Shown in pieces: positions 20,449 to 30,898 of a stretch of 32,034 bases of DNA (positions within the stretch are counted from its first letter, which is position 1; each line of letters starts with the position of its first letter). Both the position numbers and the translations under genes were made by a program. The notes under the pieces are model-generated. The model made no database searches. It was given only the letters and a program-made list of their open reading frames with translations, and had not been told where the DNA came from. Origin of the DNA: an uncultured Thermoplasmatales archaeon (lineage in GTDB: Archaea > Thermoplasmatota > E2 > DHVEG-1); contig CAZFAZ010000010.1 in NCBI GenBank assembly GCA_964517155.1, positions 1 through 32,034 of the forward strand, read 5' to 3'.

Positions 20449-21553
20449 ATGATTACAAAAAAGGTCGAGTGTCCAAAATGCAAACAAATCTTTACATCAT
20501 CTGGTAACCCGGGTGACATCATAAGGACAATTTGTCCTTCTTGCGGTCTTGCAGGAAAAATTATTTTTGAAAAAACTTTTTCATCAAGTATTATAAATGA
20601 AAACGCCGCATTAGGAGTTATCAATCTTAGAAAAGAATATGGTAGCCTTGTAGCAGTAAACAATATTTCTTTTTCTGTTAAAAAAGGTGAAGTATTTGCT
20701 TTTCTTGGCCATAATAGTGCAGGTAAAACTACAACTGTTGAAATGATTGAATCAATTAGACAACCAACCGCGGGAACAATAAAAATACTTGGAAAAGACA
20801 TTAACACATCTTTTGTTGATGTAAAAGAAAAAATTGGTGTACTTCCGCAGGAGTTTCATTCCTTTGAAAGACTTACCGTAAAAGAAACCTTAGAATTTTT
20901 TTCAAAGCTTTTTAAGAAACGTGCAAAAATAGATGAAATAATTAATGCTATGGATTTAAAAGATAAAGAAAACACACTTTACATGAATATTTCTGGTGGT
21001 AGAGAACTAATTAAGATAAACGATGTTGAAACAATCACTGGTGAGTTTAGCTTTATTGATTTCTTTTTACCAGGTATGATTGGTTTTACTATAATACAAA
21101 CCTGTATTTATGGTAGTCTTGAGCGTAATACAAAATTTAAAAAAGATGGAATTTTAAGAAAACTTTTAACAACGCCGATTACTCATTCTGAATGGATTTT
21201 TTCAAAGATGTTTTTCCAGTTGTTTTTATCGTTTGTATCTGCGGCTTTAATCATTGTTTTAGGGGTGTTAGTTTACGGCATTAAAATTAATATTAACATC
21301 TTTATGATTTTGATAATTATTGGCACAAGTTTTCTTTTTACAGGAATAGGTATGCTCATCAGTCGTTTTGTAAAAGATGAGGACTCTGCAGGTATGGCTG
21401 GTGGTGCTGTTACTGTTCCTATGATGTTTCTTGCAGGAACTTTTTTTGCACTTGAGCAGATGCCAGAGTTTTTACAAATAGTTGGCTGTAATCATTTTTG
21501 CAGTGGTTTTCTTTGTATCTAGTTTAATTTTAACTAAGTGGAAGGAAGATTAA
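20449..21553 (+). pseudogene. Deletion chimera of an ABC exporter ATPase (with N-terminal Zn ribbon) and an ABC-2 permease
   Basis: CPKC/CPSC, then an altered Walker A (GHNSAGKTT) and Q-loop. The ATPase stops at the ISGG signature (~21000) with no Walker B or H-loop and runs into a permease C-terminal half. The apparent permease end LAVIIFAVVFFVSSLILTKWKED* is out of frame (21482-21553). Confidence 0.8.
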
Positions 21554-21702
21554 GCTGTTTTTCTGAAACTTGTATTTTGAAAAAGAAAATTTTGATTTGC
21601 AATAAACAATTTGTGTGCCTTTTCCTATTTCATTTATGCCTACATGCAGATTTATTTCATGTTCTAAAAAAAATGTTTTTTAGTCTGTTGGTAAATGTTA
21701 AT

Positions 21703-22266
21703 TCAATATCTTTTAAAACCAATCCAACGCGAAGTTTTCTTCATATACTCCTTGTATTTTTCACCATATTTTTCAATACAAAACTCTTCTTCATATCCAA
21801 CATATAAAACTATTACAATCATGTAAAAAATTGTTATTATTAGGAAAATTAAGGAGTTTGACATCAATACTATTCCAACATATGCAAAGAAAAATGAAAG
21901 ATACATAGGATTTCTTGAGTATTTGTACATCCCCATCATAACGAGACTATCCGCCGATGTTTTTATCCAGCTTATACAAACACTGATGGCAATAATTATT
22001 CCAATAGTCCATAAGACAAATCCAAAATTAAAAAAAACTGTATCAAAAACTATTGGTGCTAAAAAGCTTACAATAACTGCGAGTATGAACATAATTGATG
22101 AAAGATTATATAGAAATCTAAAAAAGTTATCTCTTTTAATTTTTTGGGAAGAATCTTCATGTTTGTTCTTTTTTTTATAAACAGAAGGAATAACTGTTAT
22201 TATAATATAAACTATTAAGAAGAGATATGCATTCATTAATCCTAATTCAAAGGTAGTATACATCAA
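21703..22266 (-). CDS. Isoprenylcysteine carboxyl methyltransferase/PEMT-family membrane methyltransferase
   Basis: Multiple transmembrane segments, LVMMGMYKYSRNPMY and EE...KYGEKYKEY...RW. Confidence 0.85.
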   Translation of the reverse strand: MMYTTFELGLMNAYLFLIVYIIITVIPSVYKKKNKHEDSSQKIKRDNFFRFLYNLSSIMFILAVIVSFLAPIVFDTVFFNFGFVLWTIGIIIAISVCISWIKTSADSLVMMGMYKYSRNPMYLSFFFAYVGIVLMSNSLIFLIITIFYMIVIVLYVGYEEEFCIEKYGEKYKEYMKKTSRWIGFKRY

Positions 22267-22437
22267 TTTTTAACCTTATTTTCTTTCTTAAAAAGATTGT
22301 TTTTCCAGAATACATACAAATTTTAATTATAAAATAATTTCCCTTTTAATATTCCCTAACATTATTTCTGTTTAATTTATTTAGGAAAAAATGAAAATAA
22401 AGAAATAAATTAGATTTTTTAATCAGTTGAATAAAGA

Positions 22438-22524
22438 TTATGCAATTGGGCACTCTGCAACATGTAGAGATCCATATGTTATTTCTTTATCTACAGATTT
22501 CATTTTTGGCTTTGAGTATTTCAT
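22438..22524 (-). CDS. Candidate RiPP precursor peptide, 28 aa: MKYSKPKMKSVDKEITYGSLHVAECPIA
   Basis: ATG at 22524 and TAA at 22438-22440. GGGTTGAT ribosome-binding-like site 6 nt upstream, a TATA-like box at 22607-22614 and a T-rich tract downstream. It carries a YxxP leader motif and lies near the PqqD and radical SAM genes. It is below the ORF-track length cutoff. Confidence 0.75.
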   Translation of the reverse strand: MKYSKPKMKSVDKEITYGSLHVAECPIA

Positions 22525-22562
22525 TTTTTTATCAACCCACTTTATAATTTCAATTTTATTTC

Positions 22563-22614
22563 TCGTATATCTAATTTATACGATATATATCTATATTAAT
22601 CTACTTTATATAAA
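22563..22614 (-). promoter_or_regulatory. Putative promoter and inverted repeat upstream of the precursor gene
   Basis: Minus-strand AAACTA-TTTATATA (TATA at 22614-22607) and TCGTATA-N7-TATACGA at 22563-22583. Confidence 0.4.
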
Positions 22615-22771
22615 TAGTTTTCCTTACAATAGTATAATACTTTGATTTTTGGACAATATAGTCTGTTGTAGTAAAATTTGTTTTGTCCAACTATCTTTTT
22701 CGTATACTACATTCAACACCGTAAACTTACAAATGATGAAAATAAACAAAATTTTAACTTAAACGCTAAAG

Positions 22772-23797
22772 TTAAGAAGAAATATGTTTTAAAGAATGAT
22801 AAATTTTAAAAGAATTTTTAAAGAAAAGTAGTATTGCAATTATTAAAAATATAGCTGGTATAATAGAACATGTTAAAATACAAAGGAGCAAAAAAACTAA
22901 GAATGACCACAACATCGTTGAAATCGGAAGGAAAAAATTTATGTTTTTTTGTCTTAAATCTTTTAGTTTGATGTGTCTTAGCCATAAAATCATAAGAACA
23001 GGAAACACACCTAAAAAGGAAATAGTAATAACATCTAGATAAAACTTATAAACACATAAAAATAATAATAAAATCCATAAAATAATAGCTGCATGAATTG
23101 TCCAGTTATAACCAAGTAGTACATTAGTAGGTTTTATTCCAAATTCTGCATCTGTTTTAATATCTCGCCAGCTTATAAGTAAAGTATAAGAAATAACAGG
23201 AATGCCCATTATTAATCCGAGAATAAAGATGTCCATACTTGTCTTTGCTCCGCTAGTTAACCATCCTAAAACAAAAGGTAAAGAGCCGAAAATTAACATA
23301 TTTGAAACAATATCTATCAGCGGTTTGGTTTTAAATCTAACAGGAGGCATGGAGTACAAAAATGTGATAATAACAAGAATCGAACCCATAATAAAAACCG
23401 TGAAGTCAAAATAATGCCACAGAAAATATAAACCAACAACAGAACAGATAATTGATGATATTAAAAGTTCTTTATCTGAAATATATTTGAATATCCACAC
23501 ATTATGTTTTCTTGCAAAAATATCAAGTTTTTTATCAAATAGAAAATTGGTAAAACCACTAACAAACTCAGCCAATATTAAAAAAAACATCATTATTAAA
23601 GTAGGATAAAACAAAAATTCTTTTATCGCCCACCATTCTCCTAATAAAAAAAATGAAATAGTAATAGGAATTGTTGGTATTCGCGAAGCAACAAGATATG
23701 CTAAAATTTTTCTTTTTAAAAGGTTTGAACTTGGATTCTTGATATTTTCATCGTCGATTTTTTTTCCCCAAAAAAATTCTTCGAAATTTTCAGCCAT
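22772..23797 (-). CDS. UbiA-superfamily membrane prenyltransferase, copy 1
   Basis: NFLFDKKLD (NxxxDxxxD), YSMPPVRFK, RDIKTDAEFG and many transmembrane segments. Confidence 0.87.
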   Translation of the reverse strand: MAENFEEFFWGKKIDDENIKNPSSNLLKRKILAYLVASRIPTIPITISFFLLGEWWAIKEFLFYPTLIMMFFLILAEFVSGFTNFLFDKKLDIFARKHNVWIFKYISDKELLISSIICSVVGLYFLWHYFDFTVFIMGSILVIITFLYSMPPVRFKTKPLIDIVSNMLIFGSLPFVLGWLTSGAKTSMDIFILGLIMGIPVISYTLLISWRDIKTDAEFGIKPTNVLLGYNWTIHAAIILWILLLFLCVYKFYLDVITISFLGVFPVLMILWLRHIKLKDLRQKNINFFLPISTMLWSFLVFLLLCILTCSIIPAIFLIIAILLFFKNSFKIYHSLKHISS

Positions 23798-23861
23798 TTA
23801 ACTCCACCAATTTTTTCTTTTATGCAATAGTTTTTAAGCTTTTTATATTTACTAAGATATT

Positions 23862-24905
23862 ATGGATAACCGTGATACAACTGACTTCTCCAGTAACGAT
23901 ATAAACATTGACGGTTTTAAAATAAAAATAGATGATTTTATAGAAGAAAAAATACTTCCAGATCATTTCAACTCACCATTTATTGGACAATGGGAAATTA
24001 CACGAGAATGCAATCTTAGATGCATATTTTGTTATAATAATTCAGGAGAAAAACATTCTAATGAATTAACGCATGAACAAAAAATAAACGTTGCAAATCA
24101 GATTGTAGACGAGAAGATATATAGAATGTGTATAAGCGGAGGAGAACCTATTCTTTGCGAGTCTTTTTGGGATATCGCCAAAATTTTAAAACAAGGAAAC
24201 ATCTTTTGCAATACTATAACTAATGGATGGTTTGTAAACGAAGAAAATTCATCTTTATATGCTAATTATTTTAAAAGTATTCAGATTAGTTTAGATGGCA
24301 GAAAAAAAGATACCCACGATAAATTACGGGGTAAAAAAGGTAGCTGGGAAAAAGCTGTTAATGCCTGCAGACTAATCAAAGAGGCTGGAGGCAGGATATC
24401 CATTGCAACAGTCGTAAATCCGATTAATCTATCTGAACTTGAAGAATTAATTGATTTTACATACAGCCTAGGTGCAACAGATATGCGACTTGATGAAGTG
24501 ATATTTACGGGCAGAGCATCAAACAGAACTTATGATGATATTTCTTTATCTGAAAAACAATCATCTCAGCTGGAAAAAATAATAAAAAATAAAAAAAATG
24601 AATATAATGAAAAAATGTTTAATGTCGATATCGTGCCCAAAACACAATATAATTATGTTAGGGGTTTTGCAAAAATCCCGCCGTTATCTATTTATATTTC
24701 ACCAACCGGCACATGTGCAATTGACCCAGTTCTTCCTTTTTCAGGTGGTTCTTTAAAAGAAAAAAATCTAAAGGAAATTTGGAATGAACTTAAAACAATT
24801 CATAAAAATAAGGATTTCATAAACTATTCACTAAAAATAAAAACAGGTAAAGATTTTAAAAATATTGACAATATCCCCTACGCCAAAGGTGAATTACATG
24901 ATTGA
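23862..24905 (+). CDS. PqqE/MftC-like radical SAM protein with degenerate SPASM/twitch region
   Basis: WEITRECNLRCIFC, SGGEP, TNG, QISLDG...HDKLRG..GSW and TGRA. The C-terminal IYISPTG...GSLKEKNLKEIW retains only one Cys. Confidence 0.87.
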   Translation: MDNRDTTDFSSNDINIDGFKIKIDDFIEEKILPDHFNSPFIGQWEITRECNLRCIFCYNNSGEKHSNELTHEQKINVANQIVDEKIYRMCISGGEPILCESFWDIAKILKQGNIFCNTITNGWFVNEENSSLYANYFKSIQISLDGRKKDTHDKLRGKKGSWEKAVNACRLIKEAGGRISIATVVNPINLSELEELIDFTYSLGATDMRLDEVIFTGRASNRTYDDISLSEKQSSQLEKIIKNKKNEYNEKMFNVDIVPKTQYNYVRGFAKIPPLSIYISPTGTCAIDPVLPFSGGSLKEKNLKEIWNELKTIHKNKDFINYSLKIKTGKDFKNIDNIPYAKGELHD

Positions 24906-26261: not shown

Positions 26262-27518
26262 ATGATTAGCGACAAAAATCTATTAAATAAATCTTCTAAA
26301 GAAAAACATATTATTGATAATGTACCTTATGTTGGTCAAGATAACAGTATTTTTTGTTCATATGCTTGTCAAACAATGATTATGAAATATTATGATAGAA
26401 ATGTTAACTTAGACGATTTTGTTTTTAACTCAGGAGTAAGTTATTCATCAGGCTATGTTAAAGATTATTTTAACTATTTTCCAACTTGTGGAACTTTTTT
26501 ATCACAATGGCCACTTGATAGAAAATTTGTAGCAGATATTTATGGTTTAGAGTTTGAAACATGGTTTCCAAATGTTTTAAACAGTTCAGTATCTGAAATC
26601 TGGAATATTTACTGGGAAAAAATAAAATCATATGTCAAAAATGATATTCCTGTATCTACAGCAGTAGATTTAGTATCTCTACCTGCCTTTAGAACGCTTA
26701 TGGATAGTCAATTGTGGATAAATGCAAAAAAAATCCCAAATTTTGCATGGAATTTGGTTTCAACTGCTCATGAAATAGTAATTGTTGGATTTGATGAAGA
26801 AAATAAATTAGTTTACTATAATGATCCTGTTTCATTAAATCTAGGTAATGCCAAAAATGGGATATGTGCCTCTGTTTCTTTGGATATTTTTGTAAGGTCT
26901 GTTGCTAATGCAAAAGTTGGTAATTTTTTTCCTAACTTTATCATCAATACATATAAGGAGAAAAAATCTGCTTTATCGGATGATATTATTTTTAGAAAAT
27001 CACATGACAGAAATATACAAAAAATTAAAGGAAATCCTTTATATTATGATGAGAAATGGAGAAAATATCCACTTGGCATAAATGGATTAAATGAAATGAT
27101 TAAGGTTTTTCAAAGTACTGACGAAGCTAAAAATAAAGAATTAATATCAATGTATAAATTAGATAGCGTTAGAAAAGATTTTATGAAAAAGATTTCTTCA
27201 TTTTTTACTAAAAAATCAGACTCTCAATATCTAATTGATTCTCTTATAAATATCTATGATATTGTTTCAATTGAAAAAAAATACGCTTATGAATATTTAA
27301 AAAATCATGGCATATCCTCAAAAGAGTTAAATGATGAAATAGAGTTATTTGGTAAAGAAATAGAGAGATGGAAAGAAATTTCAAAGTTTTATTCACGTTT
27401 TTATAAAGAATTAATGTTTTCAACAAAAAACAACAAAGTTGAAAAATTTAATGAAAATGTAGTTTCAAATATTTCAGATATAATAGATATTGAAAAAACG
27501 ATGGCCAGAATTTATTAA
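26262..27518 (+). CDS. C39-like (papain-fold, BtrH-like) cysteine peptidase
   Basis: VPYVGQ....CSYAC..M.MKYY gives the oxyanion Gln and catalytic Cys. HEIVIVGFD...VYYNDP gives the His and Asn/Asp. A helical C-terminal extension follows and no signal peptide is evident. Confidence 0.75.
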   Translation: MISDKNLLNKSSKEKHIIDNVPYVGQDNSIFCSYACQTMIMKYYDRNVNLDDFVFNSGVSYSSGYVKDYFNYFPTCGTFLSQWPLDRKFVADIYGLEFETWFPNVLNSSVSEIWNIYWEKIKSYVKNDIPVSTAVDLVSLPAFRTLMDSQLWINAKKIPNFAWNLVSTAHEIVIVGFDEENKLVYYNDPVSLNLGNAKNGICASVSLDIFVRSVANAKVGNFFPNFIINTYKEKKSALSDDIIFRKSHDRNIQKIKGNPLYYDEKWRKYPLGINGLNEMIKVFQSTDEAKNKELISMYKLDSVRKDFMKKISSFFTKKSDSQYLIDSLINIYDIVSIEKKYAYEYLKNHGISSKELNDEIELFGKEIERWKEISKFYSRFYKELMFSTKNNKVEKFNENVVSNISDIIDIEKTMARIY

Positions 27519-27542: not shown

Positions 27543-28409
27543 ATGAACATGGATGATATAAAAATTGATATAAAGGGAGTATCAGAGACACTTTTTTTTA
27601 TTTTATATTCAAGAGCTATCGAAAGTCAATCAAAAGATCCAATTATACAAGATCAAAAATCTGTTGAAATCGTCAAAATCCTTGATAGATTTCTTTCAGA
27701 ATCTGATTCAAAAACACTTAAAAAACTTTATACTCGTAGTCTTTCAAAATATTATGTAGTTCTAAAAGCATTAAGAACAAAAAAATTTGATTGCTATGTT
27801 AAAGATTTTTTATCAAAAAATCCAAAGGGAGTTATCGTAAATATGGGGTGTGGACTTGATACAAGATTTCATCGAATCAATATAGGCAACGGAGAATTTT
27901 ATGATGTAGATTTACCTGAAGTAATAAGTTTAAAAAAGAAATTCTTAAAAGAAAATGATAGGTATCATTTTATTAGTTCTTCACTACATGATTTTAGTTG
28001 GATGGATGTTTTATCAAAATATAAAGACGGTTCGTTTCTGTTTCTCGCTGAAGGGGTCTTTCAATACTTTTATGAAAATGAAGTAAAATCACTACTATTT
28101 GAATTACAAAAAAAATTTCCCGGATGTGAAGTTGCATTTGATGTTACAAGTACATTTACGAAAAGAAAACAAAATAACAGATTATTTAATGCTTATTTTA
28201 AATTTATGACAGGTTTAGATCAAACTGTAAATATTAAATTTGGCATTAAAAAAAGTCAAGAGATTTCTTCTTGGAATGATAGCATTGAATTATTAGATGA
28301 GTGGAATTTTTTTGATAAAGAAATAGATAAATTAAAATTTTTTAAGTTATACAAATTTTTAGAATCTGTAAGAAAAAGTGATTGGATTATACACTACAAA
28401 CTAAATTGA
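27543..28409 (+). CDS. Class I SAM-dependent methyltransferase, LCM/TcmP-like family
   Basis: SETLFFILYSRA, VNMGCGLDTRF, DVDLPEVI and LAEGV. Confidence 0.87.
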   Translation: MNMDDIKIDIKGVSETLFFILYSRAIESQSKDPIIQDQKSVEIVKILDRFLSESDSKTLKKLYTRSLSKYYVVLKALRTKKFDCYVKDFLSKNPKGVIVNMGCGLDTRFHRINIGNGEFYDVDLPEVISLKKKFLKENDRYHFISSSLHDFSWMDVLSKYKDGSFLFLAEGVFQYFYENEVKSLLFELQKKFPGCEVAFDVTSTFTKRKQNNRLFNAYFKFMTGLDQTVNIKFGIKKSQEISSWNDSIELLDEWNFFDKEIDKLKFFKLYKFLESVRKSDWIIHYKLN

Positions 28410-28455: not shown

Positions 28456-28791
28456 TCATACTCTTTTGTCCTGGATTTTCAACATAAAAATAGTTTTATT
28501 ATATATTCCGTCAATTATTGTTTTTTCTCTGTTTTCTCCTTGTAATTTTATTTTTTTGTTTATGGATATTGTTTCATTGTATGTACCGCTATAAACAAAT
28601 ATTGTGTCATAATCATTTACATTGTCTATTGCATCTTGCATATTTATGTAGTCAGCTGTGCCATCATCATCTACACTTATTATAACTCCAGAGTATGTGA
28701 AACTATTTTTGTCTTTTTGTTCTAATGTTTTTGATATTCCTGTTGTAGAAAATAGTACAACTATAGCTAGTATTATGATTGTTTTTTTCAA
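28456..28791 (-). pseudogene. Truncated secreted NosD/pectin-lyase-fold (beta-helix) protein
   Basis: Signal-peptide-like start (TTG at 28791 after GGGGA), then VDDDGTADY..MQDAID...DTIFVYSGTYNE...GENREKTIIDG. It stops before any beta-helix repeats. Confidence 0.65.
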
Positions 28792-29627
28792 TTTCTTATC
28801 CCCCAAATTTTAAAATATTAATAATATAAAAATTATTTTCCGTAATTTTTTTATTTTTTCTATTTCTGATGTTTTTATACTAGATTATTCTTGTTTTTTT
28901 AGAAATCATATTCAAATTCTTTGAAATATGATTTCATCATTTTGTATATAAATTTACGTAAAAACAGAATCCGTGGTATTAGTTTTAGTTTCCTTGGTTT
29001 AACATATTTATTAAAGTCCTTATCTGTTTTCATATTAAGAAAATCCAAAATTTTTATAATAACTTTATTTGGTTCCATGCAGAGTTTTTCATAGTTGATT
29101 GAAATGTAATCTTCGTCTGATAGGTATTTAATATTTTTTAAAAAATACTTATTTGCTTTAGTAGAGTGCCAAATAATCTTAAAAACACCCAGGGGAAAAC
29201 AAGACGTGTAATATATCCTTGCTAAAAAAAGAGCTAAAGGATTTTGAAATAGTTTAGTATATTGTTCATAGTATAAGCCCATTAATTTGTCTTCGTTTTT
29301 AAATCGCGTTTCATAAAGTCTCAAGCTAGAGCTAATAACTTCAAGGGGGTTTCTATGAATAAATATAAACTTTGCGTTAGGGTAGTTTTTTTTTACGAAT
29401 AAAAAATTTGGATAATCATATGGGTTTTTCAAAAGTAATGGTTTGTTGTTATCTGATATATATCTAAGTTTTTTACATAACTCTTCAAATAATTGCTTGT
29501 TTTTAGCAGTTAATTTCCAAGGATAATTTTTCTGCGAAAAGATATACATATATTCATGGGCATAATCTGCTGTTACCTCTAATTCGTCTGTTTTCCTGGT
29601 TGTTATACCCATATTTTTAAATAAATT

Positions 29628-30898
29628 CAAGACTTTTGCACTTTTTCTAAATCATCCATAAATTACAGATAGAAGAACATCGTTTCCATCCTTCATTTAG
29701 GATGGGATGCAAAATATGTTCTTTACAAAAGAAATAGATGTTTTTGGTACAGCCCTTGGAAATTATAGGTATTGTTTTTCAAAACCGCAATGGAACCATT
29801 TCAACACTTATATGCATGGTCTTCTCTTAGGTGAACGGGGTGAGAAAAACATTCAGGATATCGCAGATAATCAGCTGCATGGAAGACATCAGAGTAGTTT
29901 GAACCGTTTTCTCACCCAGCCAAAGTGGGATGTTCGAAGATTAAATGCTCTTCGTATCAAGCAAAGTCTCTCCAATCGCAATGGTGGTGTCTTGGTTATT
30001 GATGACACCATCATAGAGAAATCTGGGGAACATATGGATGGTGTAGGTTATTTGTTTGATCATTCTCAGGGGAAGAGTGTACGGTGTCATGATATTGTCT
30101 CCTCTTTTTATCATAATGATGATGGTGTACATGTTCCCTTGTATTTCAGTCCTTATGTGAAGGAGGAACATGCCACCCGGTTAGGTATTTGGTTTAAAAC
30201 CAAGATACAAATCGCCCTTGATATCATCAGGAAATCCTTGCTGCAGATTTCTCCGGAGGTGGTGGTGTTTGATGCTTGGTATATGTCCAAAGAGTTGGTT
30301 GATTTTATAGGTTGCAGAGGTCTAAGTTGGGTGTCTCAGGCGAAAAGTAATCGCCTGATCCAGGTGGATGACACCTGGATATCAGTAAGTAGGTATGCAA
30401 AGGATTTGTCTAAACAATCCTTTAAGAGAATTAATACGACCCTGGATGAGCAACGGTTCAAATGGATGTATGAAATCAGTTTGGTGATGAAGAATATTGG
30501 GTTGGTGAAACTGATTATTCTTAGGGAACGACGGAACAGTAAAATCTGTACATTCTTGGTTTCCAACAACACAGAGTTGGATGGTTTGCAGGTGCTCGAA
30601 TACTATAAAAAACGCTGGGCTATTGAGGTTTTTTATAGGGATTGTAAACAGCATTTGGGAATGGGCGAGTATCAAGTAAGACGGCTTGACGCTGTAGTTA
30701 TACACCTACACCTTGTTGTTCTTGCTTATACCCTCCTAAAAAATGCCTGGCGCAATCCCTTTCTTACTACTCTTTTGAGTGGTGTGAGAGCGGTTGGTTC
30801 TGTTTGTAAACGGTTGAAACGTTGGGTGTTTATTCAATTAGCTGGGAGATTGAAAGAGCAAAGAAGTGTTCTTTCAACCTAAATCTGCAAAAGTCTTG
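29628..30898 (+). mobile_element. IS701-family insertion sequence, complete
   Basis: Perfect 13-bp terminal inverted repeats CAAGACTTTTGCA (29628-29640) and TGCAAAAGTCTTG (30886-30898). A direct repeat TAAATT flanks it (29622-29627 and 30899-30904), and it is visibly more GC-rich than its flanks. Confidence 0.9.
29707..30882 (+). CDS. IS701-family DDE transposase
   Basis: SSLNRFL, VIDDTIIEKSG, FDAWY and RWAIEVFYRDCKQHLGMGEYQVR. Confidence 0.9.
   Translation: MQNMFFTKEIDVFGTALGNYRYCFSKPQWNHFNTYMHGLLLGERGEKNIQDIADNQLHGRHQSSLNRFLTQPKWDVRRLNALRIKQSLSNRNGGVLVIDDTIIEKSGEHMDGVGYLFDHSQGKSVRCHDIVSSFYHNDDGVHVPLYFSPYVKEEHATRLGIWFKTKIQIALDIIRKSLLQISPEVVVFDAWYMSKELVDFIGCRGLSWVSQAKSNRLIQVDDTWISVSRYAKDLSKQSFKRINTTLDEQRFKWMYEISLVMKNIGLVKLIILRERRNSKICTFLVSNNTELDGLQVLEYYKKRWAIEVFYRDCKQHLGMGEYQVRRLDAVVIHLHLVVLAYTLLKNAWRNPFLTTLLSGVRAVGSVCKRLKRWVFIQLAGRLKEQRSVLST

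Follow-up and report, generated by a model that had tools for sequence, protein, structure and literature searches.

A precursor peptide with a CaaX-like C-terminus in a rare archaeal cluster of radical SAM, PqqD-type and UbiA-family genes

A short open reading frame (ORF) in the genome of an uncultured Thermoplasmatales archaeon raises the question of whether an archaeon could mature a lipopeptide in the manner of the yeast a-factor. The ORF was analysed within a stretch of 32,034 nucleotides (hereafter the window), contig C10 of a 1.58-Mb archaeal genome that is 90.8% complete. Its 28-residue product, MKYSKPKMKSVDKEITYGSLHVAECPIA, contains a single cysteine, Cys25, located fourth from the end in a C-terminal C-P-I-A, as the original prediction made from this DNA had stated. 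The ORF is flanked upstream by the gene for a UbiA-family prenyltransferase (UbiA1) and downstream by one for a membrane methyltransferase of the PEMT/ICMT superfamily, all three on the minus strand (Table 1). Eukaryotic CaaX processing, of which yeast a-factor is an example, involves farnesyltransferase (FTase) or type I geranylgeranyltransferase (GGTase-I), the proteases Rce1 or Ste24, and ICMT, and the original prediction was an analogous route in a prokaryote with UbiA enzymes as the prenyltransferases. What stands of that proposal is a real precursor gene amid prenyltransferase and methyltransferase genes, which makes a lipidated, methylated peptide product plausible; what does not stand is its generality, as neither the cysteine nor the ICMT-like gene is family-wide. 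On balance, we favour the reading that the 28-codon ORF encodes the precursor of a rare, Thermoplasmata-type archaeal cluster resembling those for peptides that are ribosomally synthesised and then modified post-translationally (RiPPs), in which UbiA enzymes attach an isoprenoid to the peptide. Judging by its genes, the cluster probably yields a lipid-tagged small peptide, with the UbiA enzymes as the likely lipid-attaching step, and it is apparently a peptide-modification cluster not described before.

Homologues of the peptide, sought by tblastn, with a small peptide profile and by locus scans, were found in three other clusters. The nearest relative with the cluster, a sister metagenome-assembled genome (L001, Thermoplasmatales), encodes MKYTKPKMKSVNKEITYGSLHVPECPVG at the equivalent position, with the ICMT-like gene next after the peptide. 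Genome G019 (locus L016), whose UbiA1 and radical S-adenosylmethionine (SAM) enzyme are 51% and 62% identical to those of the window, encodes MKYQKPKMKDVDKEITYGSQYFVLAIPGPD on the opposite strand, from a position flanked by the peptidase and LCM genes, and the 21-kb metagenome locus L027 (radical SAM enzyme 58% identical) carries two tandem copies after the peptidase gene, MKYISPKMEDVDREVSSGAAYMLLAQTP and MKYISPKMEDVDKEVSSGAAYLLIQSSP. The profile was built from these five close peptides and run on 40,051 stop-to-stop segments from all fetched loci. It recovered the five at E 1.9e-20 to 2.8e-18. Also returned were a cut copy from L031 (L031 and L016 being one cluster) and, at E 0.43, a divergent L035 peptide whose ORF lies directly upstream of the radical SAM gene there; nothing below E 1 was obtained from the 68 metagenome loci L036-L103. 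A regular expression for the leader motif matched three close peptides only, the L027 pair having come from the small-ORF listing.

Over the first 19 codons the window and G019 genes differ by eight synonymous and two non-synonymous changes, and the coding sequence of the peptide is 87% identical between the window and L001, the two flanking spacers aligning at 26% and 31%. On these comparisons the leader is considered to be under purifying selection. Because homologous ORFs occur in L001, L016/G019 and L027 and the leader codon changes are rich in synonymous ones, we regard the 28-codon ORF as a real, conserved gene for a precursor-type peptide. The C-terminal pattern alone is at chance level: in the source genome a cysteine at position -4 is found in 18 of 1438 ORFs of at least 100 amino acids (1.25%) and in 280 of 8212 ATG-started ORFs of 20-60 amino acids (3.4%), being the sole cysteine in 101 of these (1.2%). 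It is the conservation of the ORF that exceeds chance. Scanning of positions 21500-24000 with bacterial-type models, the host being archaeal, gave 14 promoter-like sites against 17.5 expected and no terminator-like sites. Of the sequencing runs, two DNA runs contain the stretch and may be its source, and no RNA run is listed as containing it. Immediately after the peptide stop codon lies a T-rich stretch (…AATCTAATTTATTTCTTTATTT…, 22380-22437, minus strand) that is near-identical in L001 and T-rich in G019, the remaining spacer being unconserved; it might serve a short precursor transcript as an archaeal oligo-T terminator.

The expectation that homologous precursors would keep the cysteine at -4 failed, as it is present in only two of the five close peptides (window and L001), or two of nine when the precursors from L035, L034, L030 and L033 are added. 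L001 ends in C-P-V-G, with the cysteine codon changed from TGC to TGT; the G019 peptide and both L027 peptides, the latter ending in ...AYMLLAQTP and ...AYLLIQSSP, contain no cysteine. The Cys-less clusters of G019 and L027 still hold the radical SAM and PqqD genes, both UbiA genes and the peptidase gene. Retention of the ICMT gene in sister clusters, which the original prediction had chosen as a test capable of refuting it, was observed for L001 only: among 15 related sequences tblastn found the gene in the window and L001, and not in the fully flanked clusters L016 and L027, nor in L033. In L016 the end of UbiA1 is 28 bases from gyrA, and the sole PEMT-family gene of G019 is a distant paralogue on another contig.

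With the cysteine and the ICMT-like gene confined to the window and L001, the enzymes common to all clusters cannot depend on the cysteine, and since three of the five close peptides are Cys-less and the UbiA pair is nonetheless retained, the conserved prenyl acceptor cannot be cysteine. The CaaX sequence of S-prenylation, aaX removal and carboxyl methylation is, on this comparative evidence, not the conserved logic of the family, and the CaaX-like ending appears limited to a single sub-branch. Cysteine and ICMT-like gene do go together in all four clusters that can be judged, the window and L001 having both and G019 and L027 neither, and the peptide gene adjoins the ICMT-like gene in the first two and follows the peptidase gene in the others. 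Because the window and L001 are close kin (UbiA1 82-83% identical), this co-occurrence amounts to one lineage versus two. The methyltransferase-bearing sub-branch is probably larger than these two clusters, given that the longest contigs of two further ICMT-like homologues from a large protein database, P0062 (70% identity) and P0064 (59%), are 7101 and 18643 bases long, equal in size to those of the radical SAM orthologues P0003 and P0005 (81% identity).

The original prediction was right that the neighbours of the peptide gene are co-oriented and that one is a prenyltransferase; its 'ICMT-family' label for the other is, by our profile searches, valid at the superfamily level only. The 187-residue methyltransferase scored 18.4 bits against Pfam ICMT (PF04140, cut-off 24) and 52.5 bits against the NCBIfam isoprenylcysteine O-methyltransferase (NF040696, cut-off 160), below both thresholds. 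Its closest solved chain is Ma-ICMT of Methanosarcina acetivorans (4a2n, E 1.5e-8, residues 15-181), which is of similar length (194 residues), aligns over nearly the full length and shares the C-terminal R-x-P-M-Y and E-E region, although the similarity is weak and the His of R-H-P is Asn here. An AlphaFold2 model was of low confidence (mean predicted local distance difference test (pLDDT) 65.4, predicted template modelling score 0.54), and a Foldseek search of the PDB with it gave no matches at E<=0.001, 5v7p and 4a2n coming first at E ~1. We know of no natural substrate of a prokaryotic ICMT-like enzyme, Ma-ICMT included. PEMT-like genes occur in 126 of the 197 genomes of the class. Around ICMT-like genes of other genomes (±1.5 kb, 30 loci), UbiA genes were found only in the window and G086, 28 loci having no adjacent UbiA gene; the few small ORFs ending in C-x-x-x elsewhere were not conserved. 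The nearest PEMT-like gene from outside the clusters (G028, 51%) is flanked by genes for a phosphorylase and an amino-acid permease. As judged from this distribution, the PEMT/ICMT-like gene is an accessory gene of the window/L001 sub-branch.

Within that sub-branch a pathway like that of a-factor could nevertheless operate: a UbiA enzyme would S-prenylate Cys25, P-I-A would be removed, and the Ma-ICMT-type enzyme would methyl-esterify the prenyl-cysteine. We consider this unlikely, while the co-occurrence of cysteine and ICMT-like gene (two clusters with both, two with neither) counts in its favour. The resemblance to a eukaryotic CaaX substrate lies in a short peptide with a cysteine at -4 (retained in L001, where its codon differs synonymously) and an aliphatic Ile or Val at -2, encoded where prenyltransferase and ICMT-superfamily genes stand side by side; the methyltransferase, whose closest solved relative is Ma-ICMT, is encoded beside the peptide gene and in the same orientation only in clusters with a Cys-bearing peptide, and only there does the peptide gene leave its place after the peptidase gene. 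The sample is two related clusters, however, and the UbiA pair of these clusters also accompanies Cys-less peptides. The eukaryotic prenylating enzyme, moreover, has no counterpart: as the original prediction had cautioned for the window, no FTase or GGTase is visible, and across the 90.8%-complete genome neither an alpha nor a beta subunit passed, PF01239 giving no match above cut-off and PF00432 none at all; the prenyltransferases at hand are membrane UbiA proteins, for which we know of no case of S-prenylation. Its caution that no Rce1 is seen in the window was likewise borne out. Two Rce1-like genes lie on contig C78, outside the window, and belong to a family common in prokaryotes that was matched in 11 of 14 control genomes; no Rce1 was found in the cluster as an aaX endoprotease linked to the substrate (Ste24 was not searched). 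In both Cys-bearing peptides the residue after the cysteine (a1) is Pro, so the bond to be cut is Cys-Pro, and X-Pro bonds are poor cleavage sites for aaX-removing endoproteases. The methyltransferase, lying below both curated ICMT cut-offs, belongs to a type of gene common in the class and present in G028 in another gene context, and the LCM-type enzyme of the cluster is already available as a carboxyl methyltransferase. The specific CaaX reading is thus weakened at present. With its Cys-bearing peptides the sub-branch allows a direct check on whether a prokaryotic ICMT-like enzyme ever encounters prenyl-cysteine. If the a-factor-like route were true, it would be a prokaryotic pathway with non-homologous prenyltransferases grafted onto a radical SAM peptide cluster, and for the first time a prokaryotic ICMT homologue would have a natural substrate.

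Other features are common to the five close peptides. In all of them M1, K2, Y3, P6, K7, M8, V11, E14 and G18 are invariant and residue 19 is Ser or Ala, after which the peptides vary in sequence and in length (9-11 residues). The only side chain common to the five variable parts is His or Tyr at their second position; all also have a Pro among the last four residues. We infer a leader/core boundary at residues 19/20. Here, as in RiPP clusters, a short precursor whose leader is conserved and whose core varies is encoded beside modifying enzymes. In lasso-peptide systems the leader is read by a PqqD-type protein (B1) acting with a cysteine protease (B2), and a PqqD-type protein and a papain-clan peptidase are likewise encoded here. 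A leader ending at residue 19 places Y3, P6 and M8 at -17, -14 and -12, so that Y-x-x-P-x-M lies as far from the inferred cleavage site as does the YxxPxL that spans -17 to -12 in lasso leaders, according to the passages on leaders in PMC10368454. The motif Y-x-x-P-x-[L/M/I] also occurs in the divergent precursors of L035, L034 and L030 and in a candidate in L033. Differences from lasso systems are a penultimate leader residue that is Gly rather than Thr, a peptidase of the C39_2 rather than the transglutaminase type, and the lack of an asparagine-synthetase-like lasso cyclase among the cluster genes in Pfam and NCBIfam scans.

Structure prediction for the G019 PqqD-type protein with the G019 peptide gave a complex score of 0.57 (median of three runs), the best of three controls reaching 0.02; contacts agreed by at least 80% between runs, and the partner pLDDT was at least 53. 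Of 157 solved complexes 116 attained the pass mark used, as did 2 of 215 mismatched pairs, the passes scoring 0.60 or less comprising 18 of the 157 solved complexes and both mismatches. Complexes of a leader with a RiPP recognition element have already been solved, so that the pass may reflect likeness to known structures, and we take the prediction as lending weak support to recognition of the leader by PqqD. A second type of precursor, of 41-52 residues, was observed at L034 2016-2141 (+) and L030 3396-3554 (+), directly upstream of related radical SAM genes; it has a lysine-rich start followed by Y-x-x-P-x-M/I and a P-P-M stretch, and each is preceded by a 227-residue ORF, the two ORFs being similar in sequence.

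The cluster comprises genes for a radical SAM enzyme, a PqqD-type protein, two UbiA proteins, a papain-like peptidase and an LCM-type methyltransferase, with the trio of peptide, UbiA1 and ICMT-like genes at one edge (Table 1). The start of the PqqD gene overlaps the end of the radical SAM gene. Orthologues of the peptidase are present in L001, L016, L025, L026, L027 and L028, and those of the LCM-type enzyme, which scored 74.2 bits against TIGR00027 and so below its cut-off of 93.55, in L001 and L016.

Table 1. Coordinates of the peptide gene, its parts and the surrounding genes in the window
Feature	Position	Strand	Basis
ABC-transporter ORF, 357 aa	20449..21522	(+)	Pfam ABC_tran 1-113 of 137; ABC2_membrane 51-192 of 211
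PEMT/ICMT-superfamily membrane methyltransferase, 187 aa	21703..22266	(-)	Pfam PEMT PF04191 38.6 bits, cut-off 25
Precursor peptide gene, 28 aa / 28 codons	22438..22524	(-)	ORF list, homologues and codon comparison
Stop codon of the 28-aa ORF	22438-22440	(-)	
Inferred core, residues 20-28 (LHVAECPIA)	22441-22467	(-)	Variable part of alignment
Cys25 codon	22450-22452	(-)	Within 28-aa ORF
Inferred leader, residues 1-19	22468-22524	(-)	Conservation, G-S/A end, lasso-like Y-x-x-P-x-M spacing
UbiA-family prenyltransferase 1 (UbiA1), 341 aa	22772..23797	(-)	Pfam UbiA 67 bits, cut-off 34.2
Radical SAM enzyme, SkfB/PqqE-like	23862..24905	(+)	Pfam Radical_SAM 87 bits
PqqD-type peptide-recognition protein, 108 aa	24865..25191	(+)	Pfam PqqD 42.9 bits and NCBIfam PqqD-family matches
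UbiA-family prenyltransferase 2 (UbiA2), 320 aa	25192..26154	(-)	Pfam UbiA 88.6 bits, cut-off 34.2
Papain-like peptidase (Peptidase_C39_2), candidate leader peptidase	26262..27518	(+)	Pfam 51.5 bits
LCM/TIGR00027-type SAM methyltransferase (carboxyl O-methyltransferase family)	27543..28409	(+)	Pfam LCM 59.1 bits

The radical SAM enzyme has as its closest solved relatives SkfB (6efn, E 1.7e-36) and PqqE (6c8v, E 1.3e-23) in profile searches of the PDB, and its separate PqqD partner recalls the synthesis of pyrroloquinoline quinone (PQQ). The CX3CX2C motif (C50/54/57) is present in 36 of 37 sequences, with further conserved cysteines at 90, 116, 169 and 285. Unlike those systems, the window enzyme has no Pfam SPASM match and no SPASM/twitch motif, C285 being the only conserved cysteine past residue 169, most of the substrates are Cys-less, and the peptides have no Glu/Tyr pair in the PQQ register. 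The kinship with SkfB, which forms thioethers, and the pairing with PqqD, typical of thioether-forming radical SAM systems, suggest another role for the sub-branch cysteine, namely as the substrate for a thioether to a backbone or side-chain carbon, with the ICMT-like enzyme methylating some other group. We hold this to be very unlikely, since orthologues of the same radical SAM enzyme serve Cys-less peptides and have just four scattered conserved cysteines in place of a SPASM/twitch motif, and it would leave the tracking of the cysteine by the ICMT-like gene unexplained. Because its orthologues serve Cys-less peptides, the chemistry of the radical SAM enzyme is, from the comparison, not Cys-dependent in general.

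Both UbiA proteins have the scores and Asp-rich motifs of the UbiA superfamily. N-x3-D-x3-D and D-x3-D are retained in both lines; in UbiA1 N84, D88, D92 and D212 are invariant among 18 relatives and D216 is at least 90% conserved. In the tree UbiA1 and UbiA2 form separate orthologue clades (support 99/97 and 100/99, respectively). The order UbiA1, radical SAM, PqqD, UbiA2, peptidase persists down to about 50% protein identity (G019), L027 has a form of it, and L032 and L033 have their radical SAM, PqqD and UbiA genes in a head-to-tail arrangement. Of 14 distinct related sequences, 10 have a UbiA gene beside the radical SAM/PqqD pair (window, L001, L016 (=L031), L024, L025, L026, L027, L028, L032 and L033), and in the other four (L029, L030, L034 and L035) the sequence ends close to that pair. 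It is the conserved, interleaved order, more than simple adjacency, that speaks for a coupling of the UbiA genes to the peptide machinery. The same order makes it quite improbable that the UbiA and ICMT-like genes have their role in lipid or quinone metabolism and merely lie beside an unrelated radical SAM peptide cluster, even though the genome has 17 UbiA genes, several of them arrayed with flavin adenine dinucleotide (FAD) oxidoreductases and methyltransferases, and G025 has UbiA-UbiA-PEMT-like genes by gyrA without radical SAM or PqqD. The 17 genes are spread over contigs C1, C10, C23, C40, C56, C57, C58, C59, C79 and C85 of the genome (G000). C40, C56 and C59 carry tandem arrays of four, three and two, respectively, beside FAD oxidoreductases, methyltransferases and an LPG-synthase-like gene, and C57 and C58 carry near-duplicate UbiA blocks.

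In the reading that we favour, the leader would be bound through Y3-x-x-P6-x-M8 by the PqqD-type protein, which would bring the peptide before the radical SAM enzyme, cleavage by the peptidase after G18-S19 would release the nine-residue core, the UbiA enzymes would put isoprenoid chains on the peptide, and the LCM-type enzyme would methylate a carboxyl group. The prenyl site would be a feature common to all cores, either core position 2 (His or Tyr) or one of the termini, and not the cysteine; Tyr, His and Trp are among the known acceptors in peptide prenylation. The cysteine at -4 and the PEMT/ICMT-like gene would be add-ons of one sub-branch, and as they occur together, the methyltransferase probably acts on a feature of the product that depends on the cysteine. 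The conserved His/Tyr, being the sole conserved core side chain, could also mean that the peptide is a scaffold supplying a small aromatic molecule, which the radical SAM enzyme and peptidase would excise as for PQQ and mycofactocin and to which UbiA would add a polyprenyl tail to give a membrane cofactor; small aromatics are the usual UbiA acceptors. We judge this quite unlikely, because cofactor precursors have near-invariant tails and here it is the leader that is conserved and the tail that varies, L027 has two different precursor copies, and a system that is very rare and absent from same-genus genomes fits an accessory natural product better.

Several points weigh against the reading that we favour. 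The cluster is known from its genes, so that product, transcript and activity are all predicted; the leader/core boundary, the role of the peptidase and the acceptor residue are read from alignments and family resemblance, and the complex prediction supports leader recognition weakly. The presence of 17 UbiA-family genes in a 1.58-Mb genome, with paralogues in contexts unrelated to peptides, makes a UbiA neighbour less special. The co-occurrence of cysteine and ICMT-like gene, small as the sample is, is what the original prediction would lead one to expect. To our knowledge no UbiA-family enzyme has a peptide as its acceptor. A 2026 review on peptide and protein prenylation names, in its accessible text, three enzyme classes and never UbiA (PMC13290415). 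Full-text searches combining UbiA and RiPP terms yielded, in the texts they cover, no paper joining UbiA enzymes to ribosomal peptides, and the words 'prenyl' and 'UbiA' are absent from the accessible text of a 2025 archaeal RiPP survey. The archaeal lipoprotein lipidation by AliA/AliB was considered as a precedent and rejected, UbiA being unmentioned in the accessible parts of PMC12462473. The established cases closest in outcome, the cyanobactin ABBA prenyltransferases (PagF type) and ComQ/ComX, likewise transfer an isoprenoid to a ribosomal peptide, but those enzymes are soluble ABBA or isoprenyl-diphosphate-synthase-like proteins, whereas the candidates here are two integral-membrane UbiA proteins in an archaeal host. 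If UbiA does act on the peptide, it would be a fourth, membrane-bound class of peptide-prenylation enzyme and the pathway would be among very few for peptide natural products from uncultured Thermoplasmata; the locus is a good target for expression and mass spectrometry.

By sequence searches the cluster is rare. Of the 197 genomes of the class 3 have a radical SAM orthologue (E<=1e-40), a sample of 401 genomes from the phylum yielded 2, and genomes of the same genus are without the cluster. In the large protein database 37 of 59 proteins at E<=1e-30 are at least 41% identical and were counted as orthologues, the rest being at most 35% identical. Orthologues were kept from 12 of 80 metagenome loci; the other 68 (L036-L103, radical SAM identity at most 33%) were left out of the orthologue set and included in the peptide profile search.

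The ABC-transporter ORF next to the methyltransferase gene joins a Cys-rich N-terminus to the initial portion of an ABC ATPase and a later portion of an ABC-2 permease, as if two transporter genes had been fused by an in-frame deletion or in the assembly. It is a possible exporter remnant, its membership of the cluster being uncertain; in L029 an ABC ATPase gene immediately follows PqqD. Beyond the cluster the window contains, in place of the gyrase and C25-type peptidase genes seen at three other loci, a NosD-like fragment (28456-28806), a sulfotransferase-like ORF (28899-29630) and an IS701 transposase (29707-30882). In L027 (3529-8537 and 13551-15329) the accessory genes differ: they encode a protein of beta-lactamase fold, another C39_2 peptidase whose start is signal-like, a sulfatase (between the two UbiA genes) and, after the pair of precursor genes, a clostripain-Hint protein. 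UbiA paralogues adjoin YcaO and B12-binding radical SAM genes in L017 (G025:C4, 8966-13511) and B12-binding radical SAM and signal-peptide peptidase genes in L019 (G007:C42, 3786-6092). In L018 (G025:C8, 8500-11950) two tandem UbiA genes and a 277-residue PEMT/ICMT-like gene lie by C25 peptidase genes and gyrA; this locus has no radical SAM or PqqD gene, and downstream of its UbiA genes there are two occurrences of a small ORF that starts with MSNYIWERPKRYNIPYAHFNFT. Proximity of the cluster, or of a UbiA/PEMT-like pair, to gyrase and large C25-type peptidase genes was seen in L001 (10314-12779), L016 (3652-8045) and L018 (14580-17030).

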